From positions 1-32,066 of the IMG/VR virus record IMGVR_UViG_3300015050_000746: DNA of 32,066 nucleotides, one strand, 5' to 3'. Below the pieces are notes generated by a model. It saw only the letters and a list, made by a program, of their open reading frames with translations, made no database searches and was not told where the DNA came from. The position numbers and the translations under genes are program-made. Each line of letters begins with the position of its first letter. Position 1 is the stretch's first letter. Positions 9,052 to 12,907 of the stretch are shown in pieces. The DNA is from a virus. Lineage: Duplodnaviria; Caudoviricetes.

Positions 9052-9368
9052 CACACCGCTCCCGTAATGTCAGCAGCAACGGCGAAAAAGTTGGGCTTGG
9101 CGGCGGGCTTGGCCTCGTCAGCCAAGTCGGCAAGGCGGTAGTCAGTGGCCACCGCAATCAGGTAACGGGCCGACTGCGGAAACGCCGCGCGCTGTTCTTC
9201 AAGCCAGCCTTCGCGGTCATCCTCCGCAATGGCCAACGCACGTTCTGCCATCGCAAAACCTTCGTCCTGATACTCGTATGCGCCAACCCAGTCGCGGCAA
9301 TAAAAGCCGTCGCCGTTTTCGCTGGCGTATTCGGTCAGTGCGTTGTCGAGTTGTGCTTGCGTGGTCAT
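9051..9368 (-). CDS. First gene of the leftward early operon, hypothetical
   Basis: MTTQAQLDNAL..., preceded by an AGGGAG RBS. Confidence 0.75.
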   Translation of the reverse strand: MTTQAQLDNALTEYASENGDGFYCRDWVGAYEYQDEGFAMAERALAIAEDDREGWLEEQRAAFPQSARYLIAVATDYRLADLADEAKPAAKPNFFAVAADITGAV

Positions 9369-9390
9369 GTCGTCTCTCCCTTGTTGGACA

Positions 9391-9699: not shown

Positions 9700-9790
9700 G
9701 CAACTGCACCTTCCGCCCAAATGGGCCAGAGCCGCTAACATCGTTGGGCTGGTCCTTACCGTCGTCATCCTCGCTGCGTGGGGGGTCTGA
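9692..9790 (+). CDS. 32-aa single-pass membrane peptide
   Basis: Not in the track. MFEQLHLPPKWARAANIVGLVLTVVILAAWGV; GAGGGGAG RBS; TGATG coupling to the next gene. Confidence 0.65.
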   Translation: MFEQLHLPPKWARAANIVGLVLTVVILAAWGV

Positions 9791-10059
9791 TGCTGGCCTT
9801 CCTCAAACGCATCGTAAGCCGCTACGGGTTCTTTCATCGTCCGGTGAAGGTCTATGCGCCAACCGCGCAATGGCATCAGCACCCGTTCTTTTCCGACGCC
9901 GCTAACAAGAACCGACGCCTTGCGCTGATCGTGCAAGAGCGGAACGCGCTCAAGGACGAGCTTGATAAGGCTATCAAGCAGAAGAAAAAGCGTTCCGGCA
10001 TCTATGCCAAGCTCCGCGCTCTCTCGATTGAAGAGCTTAACGTGGTGACGGGCAAATGA
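9790..10059 (+). CDS. Basic hypothetical protein
   Basis: MLAFLKRIVS...; coupled at both ends. Confidence 0.65.
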   Translation: MLAFLKRIVSRYGFFHRPVKVYAPTAQWHQHPFFSDAANKNRRLALIVQERNALKDELDKAIKQKKKRSGIYAKLRALSIEELNVVTGK

Positions 10060-10313
10060 AAGTCCTTTTGATCGGAGGACACGCGGACGGACGGCGGATT
10101 AATCTCGCGGAAGGCGCAAACTCGGTCTGCATTCCAAAGCTAGTCGCTGTCGCCACTTCCGTTGCTCACACGGTAACCATGACGGAATTTGCGCCCTATC
10201 ACGAATACAAGATTGAGCGCGTCATGGGACATCACGTCGGGGTTTATGACGAGCTTGACCCCTGCAAGCTAGTGGACTTTCTTGTCTCTGGTTACCGGCC
10301 TGAACTCGGATGA
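10056..10313 (+). CDS. Hypothetical protein
   Basis: MKVLLIGGHADGRRI...; ATGA overlaps at both ends. Confidence 0.7.
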   Translation: MKVLLIGGHADGRRINLAEGANSVCIPKLVAVATSVAHTVTMTEFAPYHEYKIERVMGHHVGVYDELDPCKLVDFLVSGYRPELG

Positions 10314-10636: not shown

Positions 10637-11016
10637 CCGCCGCCCCACCACGACCCTCAATGTCCAAAGCGCGGCGGGTCCGCATCTTCGTGAAGGAGGA
10701 CGGGCGCTGCTATCTGTGCCGCGACAAGATCAAGATCGGCCAGCTTTTCGAGGTCGAACACGTTATTCCGTGGGCGCTGTCTTTTGACGATTCAGACGAT
10801 AACCTGAAAGTCGCACACACGGTCTGTCACCGGACGCTTAAGACTGGCGACGACGTTAAGCGCATTGCCAAGAGCAAACGGCAGGCAGGAGAAACCGGAC
10901 AATGGGCGAGACGCCAGAACCGGACTGCGCCGCTTATCCAGTCTCGGAACGAATGGCCGAAGGGTCAGAAATTGCAATCACGCGGCTTCGCAAAAAAGCC
11001 CAAGGGGGACCAATGA
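10633..11016 (+). CDS. HNH endonuclease
   Basis: CYLC...EVEHVIPWALSFDDSDDNLKVAHTVCH...KT..D...IAKSKR. Confidence 0.85.
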   Translation: MTAAPPRPSMSKARRVRIFVKEDGRCYLCRDKIKIGQLFEVEHVIPWALSFDDSDDNLKVAHTVCHRTLKTGDDVKRIAKSKRQAGETGQWARRQNRTAPLIQSRNEWPKGQKLQSRGFAKKPKGDQ

Positions 11017-11357
11017 GAACTTCAGTTGCCGACATTTTGCGGGAGACGGCTGCAAAGCATGGGCTTTCCGTGGCCAGTCTTTTGGACCCGTGCCGACAGC
11101 GAGCCTACGCTTGGCCCCGTCAGGAGGCCATGTACCGCGTCTTCACCGAATGCCCACACATATCCTATCCCGAAGCTGGACGACGGCTAGGCGGGCGGGA
11201 CCATACGACTGTCCTGCATGGCGTGAGAGCCTACGCACAACGTCACGGGCTGGACTATGCCGATGCCGTTAAGATGCGTCAGACGGCCAAAGCCATTCCG
11301 TATTTTGAGGTGATGATGGCTGCTTATGCTAAGTCTCTGGAGGTCGCCCGTGTCTAA
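11013..11357 (+). CDS. DnaA C-terminal (domain IV)-like HTH protein
   Basis: AWPRQEAMY...SYPEAGRRLGGRDHTTVLHGVR matches the DnaA signature RDHTTV; ATG 11013 follows AGGGGG. Confidence 0.88.
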   Translation: MRTSVADILRETAAKHGLSVASLLDPCRQRAYAWPRQEAMYRVFTECPHISYPEAGRRLGGRDHTTVLHGVRAYAQRHGLDYADAVKMRQTAKAIPYFEVMMAAYAKSLEVARV

Positions 11358-11553: not shown

Positions 11554-11590
11554 AAAAAGGCCCGGCGAGCGCGAGAGCATCACCGGGCCT
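11554..11590 (-). terminator. Rho-independent terminator (minus strand, inside a plus-strand operon)
   Basis: AGGCCCGGTGA-N11-TCGCCGGGCCT followed by TTTTCT. Confidence 0.75.
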
Positions 11591-11634
11591 CCGTCTTCCA
11601 CGGCCAGAACAAGGGGGAGGAGCCTAGCCGTGTC
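11554..11634 (-). ncRNA. Candidate ~80-nt antisense RNA (two hairpins, anti-SD loop) upstream of the initiator gene
   Basis: Bounded by a promoter (11640-11668) and an intrinsic terminator. Stem CACGGCTAG/CTGGCCGTG with loop GCTCCTCCCCCTTGTT. Confidence 0.65.
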
Positions 11635-11671
11635 TCCCCTTTATACCGCCTTGATATTTTCAGACCAATGA
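11630..11671 (+). CDS. 13-aa leader peptide coupled to the initiator
   Basis: GGAGGAG (11616-11622)-7 nt-GTG; (M)SPLYTALIFSDQ; its TGA overlaps ATG 11668. Confidence 0.5.
   Translation: MSPLYTALIFSDQ
11640..11668 (-). promoter_or_regulatory. Promoter for the antisense RNA
   Basis: TTGGTC (11668-11663)-N17-TATAAA (11645-11640). Confidence 0.6.
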
Positions 11672-12606
11672 CGGATAAAGCTTGTGCAGATCAGAGGGAC
11701 GCTGACCTGCGAAACGCCAACGGCTTATACGGAGCCATCGACTATGCGGTTTTACCGCTACCAGACATATCGCGCAAGCCTCCGGGTTGTTCCGTGAGCG
11801 CGCCGTTCATGCAGCTCTATGTCGCTGACTATCTTGGCGACACTAGGCACCTGACCACCGAACAACACGGGGCGTATTTGCTCCTCCTCATGACCATGTG
11901 GCGGTCTGAAGGAGTCTTGTCAGACAACCCCGTAAAGCTGGCCAGAATCGCGGGCCTGACGCCCTCTCGCTGGTCGACAATCTGCGCCGAGATTCTGGAG
12001 TTTTTCACTCCATGCGAAGGTGGATTTACGCAAAAAAGGCTCTCCGCTGAACTCGCGATTGCCGAAGAAAAATCGGAGAAAAGATCGCAGTCGGGGAAAG
12101 CTGGTGCGAGAGCTAAGGCGTTGAAATCTAACAAACTGGCCTCAGCAAATGCTTCACGATCGCTTAAGCATTCTCCAGAACCAGAACCAGAGTTAAAGAA
12201 AGAGAAGCTTACAGCTTCTCCAAAGAAAGGCACTCGATTGCCTTCGGATTGGGTTCCATCGCAAGCGGACCTGACCTTTGCCGCCAGCCAAAACATGACC
12301 CCCGAGGAGACCAGACGTGAAGCCGATCAGTTCCGTGATTTCTGGATTGCTAAGCCGGGAGCCGGTGGATGCAAACTCGACTGGCCTGCAACATGGCGGA
12401 CGTGGTGTCGCAATCGACGCAGCGCGGGCCAAGCTGGAAAGCCAAACGCCGGAGGACACCGACCGCAACCTGCTTCAATGGTTGATATCGTCCTTGAGCG
12501 TCGAAGCGCAGCCGCGAGTCAGCCTGACCTATCCGGTGAGCGGTGGCTACCAACGGACAGTGACGGGGTTTTCGTTTCAGGGGCTAACGGAGGACAACCG
12601 TTCTGA
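11668..12606 (+). CDS. YdaU/DUF1376-family phage replication initiator
   Basis: PFMQLYVADYLGDTRHLTTEQHGAYLLLLMTMW, a PEPEPE linker, and C-terminal GTRLPSDW...FRDFWIAKPG...KLDWPATWRTWCRN. Alternative in-frame GTG at 11794 lacks an obvious RBS. Confidence 0.88.
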   Translation: MTDKACADQRDADLRNANGLYGAIDYAVLPLPDISRKPPGCSVSAPFMQLYVADYLGDTRHLTTEQHGAYLLLLMTMWRSEGVLSDNPVKLARIAGLTPSRWSTICAEILEFFTPCEGGFTQKRLSAELAIAEEKSEKRSQSGKAGARAKALKSNKLASANASRSLKHSPEPEPELKKEKLTASPKKGTRLPSDWVPSQADLTFAASQNMTPEETRREADQFRDFWIAKPGAGGCKLDWPATWRTWCRNRRSAGQAGKPNAGGHRPQPASMVDIVLERRSAAASQPDLSGERWLPTDSDGVFVSGANGGQPF

Positions 12607-12907
12607 GGCTCTACGGGCCGTGCAAAGCGCCATGACGCCCGCGACGGTCGAACGGTGCGAGGAGCTGGTTTCAACGCTCCACGCCGTCACAGCTCACCGG
12701 AACGACAGCGATAATTCGCTTCGGCTGATTCTCAGGCTCTACAGCGATTGTCTGGCCAGGTATCCGGCAGACGTGGCCAAGGCGGTCTGTGAGCGGTTCA
12801 TGTATCGCCCCGATAAGCCCAACTTCTTTCCGACCCTGAGCGAGTTGAAAGAGGCTTGCGACAAAGCGACGGACCAGCGCGACCACCTTCTAAGGGCCTT
12901 GGTGTGA
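12317..12907 (+). CDS. Replication accessory protein (helicase loader/inhibitor-like); start uncertain (12317 or 12632)
   Basis: LARYPADVAKAVC...FFPTLSELKEAC motif typical of genes following phage initiators; GAGGAG-7 nt-GTG at 12317. Confidence 0.7.
   Translation: MKPISSVISGLLSREPVDANSTGLQHGGRGVAIDAARAKLESQTPEDTDRNLLQWLISSLSVEAQPRVSLTYPVSGGYQRTVTGFSFQGLTEDNRSEALRAVQSAMTPATVERCEELVSTLHAVTAHRNDSDNSLRLILRLYSDCLARYPADVAKAVCERFMYRPDKPNFFPTLSELKEACDKATDQRDHLLRALV

Follow-up and report, generated by a model that had tools for sequence, protein, structure and literature searches.

Background

The closest described counterparts of the locus reported here come from plasmids and from phage lambda. In the IncFII plasmid R1, an antisense RNA, CopA, inhibits translation of tap and hence synthesis of RepA (PMC12361487, PMC5415839). 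OOP of phage lambda is a short self-terminating leftward RNA of 77 nt that is conserved among related phages (PMC3349717, PMC5869508). In alphaproteobacterial repABC plasmids, a counter-transcript (RepE/IncA) lies just upstream of the initiator gene and induces a terminator in the repC leader; the accessible part of that account names no leader ORF (PMC3155836). Cuckoo RNAs carry CCUCCUCCC in each of the 2–4 loops of adjacent hairpins (PMC4615179). Some extrachromosomal prophages have RNA-based origins together with parABS, which is a different design (PMC7157519), and the available portion of a review of phage sRNAs does not name antisense or leader control of an initiator (PMC12197685).

Here we analyzed a window of 32,066 nt, which is the whole stretch of viral DNA under study (IMGVR_UViG_3300015050_000746), and a set of related loci. 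A cassette of ~ 250 nt, which keeps its place although unrelated initiators are exchanged behind it, is real and conserved in this set and is apparently uncatalogued: searches of an open-licence literature library, Rfam, INPHARED and PLSDB gave no description of it. It holds a short leader ORF that runs into the next gene and two candidate antisense RNA genes in tandem, which we call as1 and as2. On the sequence, the best reading of the cassette is a plasmid-type antisense control of the initiator, with as2 as a second element. If this is true, plasmid-style antisense initiator control works in a family of uncultured lambdoid-type phages, which would matter for how these phages time their replication, how they persist or how they keep out their kin. 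Given the small size of the cassette, the swapped genes and the 22 natural variants of the as1 loop, the proposal is testable with reporters in a laboratory alphaproteobacterium and does not require culture of the phage. The annotation of the window changes as well: the initiator start moves to 11794, and one unannotated leader and two candidate RNA genes are added.

The likeness to R1 lies in a leader that overlaps the start of the initiator in all 33 leader-bearing loci, and in a structured cis antisense RNA gene over the leader initiation region, which is seen here only as a sequence signature. Unlike R1, the cassette belongs to tailed phages that have an early region of the lambdoid type and initiators of the DUF1376 or HTH_36 kind, its antisense promoter lies inside the leader, such that as1 would cover the leader Shine-Dalgarno sequence (SD) directly, and a second antisense unit stands in tandem. 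With OOP, the cassette shares a predicted leftward promoter at the 5' end of the first replication ORF; in 36 of 36 loci this promoter, P1, falls within either the leader or the HNH gene. However, neither as1 nor as2 overlaps the upstream gene, and no CI-type repressor or integrase was found in 20 relatives. The repABC counter-transcript resembles the cassette in being an alphaproteobacterial antisense RNA placed just upstream of an initiator gene, but the cassette phages show neither a ParA match (20 relatives) nor an Rfam match to a ctRNA. Rfam families, CopA and ctRNA included, gave no match at the gathering score in the window and none at E ≤ 5 for 11640–11830.

Assembly of the related loci

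Related loci were gathered with the initiator protein and with DNA patterns. A promoter-block pattern gave 70 matches, of which 51 were discarded for having neither the loop nor the leader motif, and another DNA-pattern query gave 18 matches, of which 3 were discarded. With chance matches and repeated contigs removed, 36 loci were used, the window included. Queries that held no leader sequence were the first to retrieve 33 of the 36, and 31 of the as1 sequences are distinct. The loci are related and mosaic, so that the counts given below are not independent events. One candidate, L048, fits the first leader pattern, yet it has other spacing and matches neither RNA model, and it was dropped. 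Covariance models of the two RNAs hold few pairs (6 and 9), because the subtypes align poorly, and were used only for copy counts; by these models, each genome has one as1 and at most one as2.

The early region and the start of the initiator gene

Pfam and PHROG matches in the window place recombination genes leftward in the early region. The rightward arm carries genes for a small HTH protein, a resolvase-like protein, an HNH protein, a DnaA_C-type HTH protein and then the DUF1376 initiator. This last gene, the DUF1376 (YdaU-like) replication initiator of 270 aa (11794..12606, plus strand), was assigned from PF07120 (E 4e-19), PHROG primosomal and replication initiation families and the lengths of its homologues. 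Iterons were looked for in the initiator gene and none were found. Coverage by RNA run X1 is confined to 12095–12405, outside the cassette. No DNA homologue was found among INPHARED phages or PLSDB plasmids. The best match of the SSB among named phages is that of Caulobacter phage Sansa (67%), and the portal matches are mostly to alphaproteobacterial phages; judged from these two proteins, the host is therefore probably an alphaproteobacterium.

A 196-codon ORF (12317–12907, plus strand) overlaps the final 290 nt of the initiator in another frame. It has no Pfam or PHROG match; one cluster of this ORF spans 31 of 33 loci, and the contigs listed for the 91 homologues of this gene after the initiator do not exceed 41,124 bases (with a blank in one row). 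Its position suggests a helicase loader.

The sequence-only reading of this region had proposed that the initiator starts at ATG 11668, coupled to a 13-codon leader. Every letter that it cited is in place. The motif GGAGGAG (11616–22) precedes GTG 11630, which opens a 13-codon ORF (11630..11671, plus strand) ending in ATGA (11668–71). The minus strand has TTGGTC (11668–63), 17 nt and TATAAA (11645–40), a hairpin with the loop CUCCUCCCCCUUGU, and a GC-rich hairpin followed by U5. As a conserved leader, the 13-codon ORF does not stand up. A start codon is found behind the loop SD in 20 of 32 loci and is lacking in the other 12, and the 20 frames run for anything from 3 to 195 codons (all frames considered). 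ATG 11668 also fares badly as a start: it is present in 22 of 35 loci and reaches the next gene only in the window and L133, and possibly L112. In the 312-codon frame that it opens, the DUF1376 match starts only at residue 46, and the four best database homologues are 265–270 aa long. Several relatives have an ATG at the position of GTG 11794. The initiator start is most likely GTG 11794, and the 13-codon ORF is probably a by-product.

A conserved leader that overlaps the next gene

A conserved leader is found ~ 110 nt downstream of the 13-codon ORF. In the window it is an ORF of 17 codons (11744..11797, plus strand) whose TGA overlaps GTG 11794, and its aligned SD, GGAG (11731..11734), stands 9 nt before ATG 11744. 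A leader ORF of 17–20 codons is present in 33 of the 36 loci, and the stop/start overlap recurs across them: in 33 of 33, the first in-frame stop of the leader falls where the following gene begins. Two loci have lost the leader ATG and have a GTG available two codons earlier. In the three loci without a leader, an HNH-type gene begins right there, which was confirmed by Pfam for L106. The leader peptide is invariant at two spots only; these are where the promoter boxes lie, and the invariance there extends to third codon positions.

The gene that the leader overlaps varies, and includes two kinds of DUF1376 gene, two kinds of HTH_36 gene, a PAPS-reductase-like gene and others. The PAPS-reductase-like gene (~ 280 aa) takes this place in 6 of the 36 loci (L245, L249, L250, L252, L262 and L266), and a DUF1376 gene comes after it in three such contigs.

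The strength and accessibility of the two start regions were compared. In the window the SD of GTG 11794 is weak, at -3.7 kcal/mol versus -5.8 kcal/mol for that of the leader, and GTG 11794 is predicted to be paired (0.01). In 26 of 33 loci, the leader start is the more accessible of the two. In 10 of 33, the coupled gene's own SD equals or exceeds that of the leader in strength, so the coupling may not be obligatory.

P1 and the predicted RNA as1

Inside the leader, on the minus strand, is the predicted as1 promoter, P1 (11749..11777), in which TTGCGC (11777–72) and TAAAAC (11754–49) are separated by 17 nt. The pattern TTG(C/A)nn-17-TA(T/A)A(T/A)C is found in all 36 loci with the spacer fixed at 17 nt, and its information content is highest at the -35 and -10 positions. 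The boxes are also present at the three loci that have the HNH gene in place of the leader and at the three without as2. The pattern has a single match in the 32-kb window (shuffle mean 0.39) and 12 matches across ten whole genomes, all but two of which are at the cassette, but it was derived from the same loci and its -10 box formed part of the locus anchor, so that these numbers show rarity and are not an independent prediction. The -10 form TAnAWC resembles the Caulobacter housekeeping promoter consensus. Alphaproteobacterial promoters are reported often to lack a T at -7 (PMC7703639).

With its start set ~ 7 nt after the -10 box, at 11742, the predicted as1 is an RNA of ~ 70 nt (71 nt in the window; 11672..11742, minus strand), made up of SL1 (11742–11716), SL2 (11710–11686) and a tail, UUUAUC. 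SL1 carries the complement of the leader SD at its loop. The fold has a z-score of -4.61 on the minus strand and -1.04 on the plus strand. The minus-strand form of SL1 is the more stable one in 34 of 35 loci, drawing on G-U pairs that the plus strand cannot form, and its first paired base is at +1 or +2 in 31 of 35. Over 33 aligned rows, 87.5% of the SL1 cells are paired and 22 double changes are seen, a level reached by 0 of 500 shuffles, with slid controls at no more than 44% paired; relatedness of the loci inflates this test. The loop itself is variable, with 22 variants among the 36 loci. The second hairpin is predicted in every subtype and differs in sequence between subtypes. The 3' end of as1 is uncertain, because the tail is merely U-rich and in group A is 5–7 nt from the stem.

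P2, P+ and the predicted RNA as2

The second unit, as2, is a predicted RNA of ~ 80 nt (11554..11633, minus strand) that consists of a hairpin with a CUCC..UUGU loop (11599–11632) and a terminator hairpin with a U-run (11554–11589). The segment 11635–11550 forms the two hairpins proposed for this strand, at -46.4 kcal/mol (z -4.6), and 0 of 200 shuffles do as well. A check of conservation, as the sequence-only reading had called for, finds as2 in 32 of the 36 loci; L261 has an altered version, and L008, L046 and L270 have none. The 13-codon leader is not kept. In a 28-row alignment, 7 of the 9 consensus pairs show compensatory changes on both sides. The loop UUGU is kept in every aligned copy, within a family consensus of CUCCC(C)UUGU. 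At least three U are found at the end of 27 of 28 copies, and the U-run ends no more than 3 nt from the stop of the upstream gene in 28 of 28, a position that fits a terminator acting as an insulator. That upstream gene varies, with 62 to 330 open codons.

The predicted as2 promoter, P2 (11640..11668, minus strand), is TTGGTC-17-TATAAA. Its -35 begins with TTG in 31 of the 32 loci with as2 and in 0 of 3 without it; its -10 begins with TA in 21 of the 32 and is weak in the other 11. A generic promoter and terminator scan found neither P2 nor the as2 terminator. Overlapping P2 on the opposite strand, with conserved spacing, is a possible sense promoter, P+ (TTGATA-17-GATAAA; 11651..11679, plus strand). 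It has G at -12, its -10 doubles as the U-rich as1 tail on the other strand, and this -10 is TAGAAG or TACAAC in L008 and L046, both without as2. P+ is the weakest part of the cassette.

In the window and group A, as2 may also be, on a structural argument, the 3' half of one read-through transcript of ~ 190 nt, because the promoter block between as1 and as2 folds there as a minus-strand hairpin and the whole 192 nt form five hairpins on that strand (z -5.2, versus -2.5 for the plus strand).

A few loci carry additional elements of this kind. In L247 (~ 9760–9890) and in L126, the 3' half of a second as2 subtype is found directly upstream of a complete as2, which we take as a sign of module exchange. 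L261 (~ 10160–10295) has an extra hairpin beside the promoter block, and an as2-like match lies further off. A weak as2-model match in L282 (13576–13645; E 0.002) resembles an ordinary terminator.

An anti-SD-like loop on a hairpin is also a trait of cuckoo and ar14 RNAs, the former of which the sequence-only reading had cited, and as2 has weak ar14 similarity. Membership was not borne out. The scores are 30.9 bits in the window and 27.4 in L049, against an Rfam gathering score of 58.8; over 20 loci, ar14 gave one sub-threshold match. Moreover, as2 has one motif loop, not 2–4, and its terminator loop lacks the motif. Cuckoo RNAs thus share only single traits with the cassette (PMC4615179, PMC7143759). 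MmgR/suhB, considered on account of its loop motif, was rejected, having no Rfam match.

As2 does not overlap the conserved leader, and its pairing with its own leader start region beats that of shuffled loops in 1 of 28 cases (p < 0.05). A trans role on ribosome-binding sites (RBSs) of the type AACAAGGG(G)AG, chiefly that of the first leftward early-operon gene, such that the two RNAs throttle both arms, is conceivable but rather doubtful. The loop UUGU is unchanging, as noted. Of the 25 loci with at least 3 kb of upstream sequence, 20 show ACAA-GG-AG in the start region of the first leftward gene, as do L245 and L249; this motif is kept although the gene itself varies, and the match in L245 covers ~ 19 bp, through the AUG (-29.9 kcal/mol). 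However, the motif may simply be a good SD. No preference for the cognate site was found over 20 loci (p 0.26), the site ranked only 7th–28th in 4 of the 6 genomes ranked and was not found in G003, and the window match is just 8 nt (9 nt for the gene at 11013). The start of the first leftward gene in the window (9368–9387, minus strand) reads AACAAGGGAG, and similar sites are found before other early genes. The longest sense-strand match to the as2 loop outside the element, 9 nt, is in the RBS (11001–11009, plus strand) of the DnaA_C-type HTH gene (11013–11357).

Proposed mode of control and its alternatives

Control of the first replication gene in the manner of R1 CopA/tap, with as1 over the leader RBS, is the best reading of the cassette, and we regard it as probable, though by no means certain. 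What the sequence shows is a leader that overlaps the gene after it, conservation in the shape of a promoter, and hairpins that covary and favour one strand; that the RNA is transcribed and the leader translated, and that coupling and repression take place, is what we infer. The general idea of the earlier reading, an antisense RNA over the RBS of a short leader coupled to the initiator, fits the region, but its parts differ: the leader is 11744–11797, the start is most likely GTG 11794, and the RNA over the SD would come from a predicted promoter inside the leader.

In this proposal, P1 would make the ~ 70-nt as1 from inside the 17-codon leader. By covering the leader RBS, as1 would likely block translation of the leader, and through the stop/start overlap this would lower synthesis of the replication initiator. 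The as2 unit, of like build and directly behind as1, would have a working promoter of its own in 21 of 32 loci and, in the window and group A, would possibly also form part of the longer RNA; the terminator at its end would shield the upstream gene from antisense transcription. With its variable loop, as1 would restrict the control to close kin, much as in the incompatibility of plasmids. Counted against this reading is the lack of a leader in 3 of 36 loci. Copy control is also puzzling in a phage family with no integrase or ParA match in the 20 relatives searched.

The main rival to the R1-like reading is a decay mechanism of the OOP kind, which we consider unlikely. As1 and as2, or the ~ 190-nt RNA, would pair with the long early transcript and lead to RNase III cleavage or to transcriptional interference between the replication module and the genes upstream of it, and the leader would be incidental. 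The cassette occupies the same place as pO/oop in lambda, where the 5' end of O holds the promoter (PMC5869508, PMC3349717), P1 lies within the first gene itself in three loci, and the five-hairpin fold of the minus strand would suit such an RNA. Against this, OOP has the end of cII as its target, with an overlap of 52 bases (PMC5869508), whereas as2 ends no more than 3 nt from the upstream stop in 28 of 28. The as1 start, ~ 2 nt before the leader ATG, is placed such that the RNA would cover the leader SD, and the stop/start overlap of the leader is kept throughout; both features count against the OOP-like mechanism.

That the conserved boxes serve as operators for proteins, or are simple palindromes in the DNA, with no antisense RNA made, is very improbable. 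GCGG-n5-CCGC and TTG-n12-CAA are indeed palindromic, and the weak -10 of P2 in 11 of 32 loci would be in keeping with this. However, two HNH-type loci out of three have lost the symmetry of the first palindrome but neither of the promoter boxes, the hairpins depend on G-U pairs that are possible on the minus strand only, and nearly all as2 copies end in a run of U.

That as2 blocks the 13-codon ORF at 11630, itself coupled to an initiator starting at ATG 11668, can be set aside almost entirely, for although none of its letters is missing and the window has an open frame of 312 codons, the ORF and its start are not maintained among the loci, the ATG fails to reach the next gene even in L126, where hairpin 1 is identical to that of the window, and the SD is predicted to be paired in the sense RNA (mean unpaired probability 0.09).

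Lifestyle of the phage family and distant loci

The initial impression of a phage without integrase or CI extends to 20 relatives, as far as four Pfam models detect: tyrosine integrase, S24 peptidase, resolvase and ParA (PF13614) were matched in 0 of the 20, and the controls matched. Of these relatives, 16 are at least 90% complete and 8 have terminal repeats. An HTH_3 match is found in 6 of the 20. A more speculative proposal, to which we give little weight, is that an RNA-only brake takes the place of repressor and integrase, where as1 would set the initiator level in a kin-specific manner and as2 would silence the first leftward gene, allowing a lambda-dv-like carrier state and exclusion of close kin.

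By pattern, no such cassette was found at 16 distant initiator loci, three annotated phages among them, and six further annotated phages have ordinary gene overlaps ahead of the initiator. In L017 (~ 870–990), where the initiator is distant (30% identity), there is a hairpin, a GGAG and a 14-codon stretch ending in ATGA, with TTGACC-17-TATCTT on the minus strand; the frame, however, stays open over 84 codons, and the site gives no match to either RNA model. In Pseudanabaena phage Pam5 (ON014757; L296, 1090–1760), an initiator-like ORF from 1090 is unannotated, and a GcrA gene is listed nearby.
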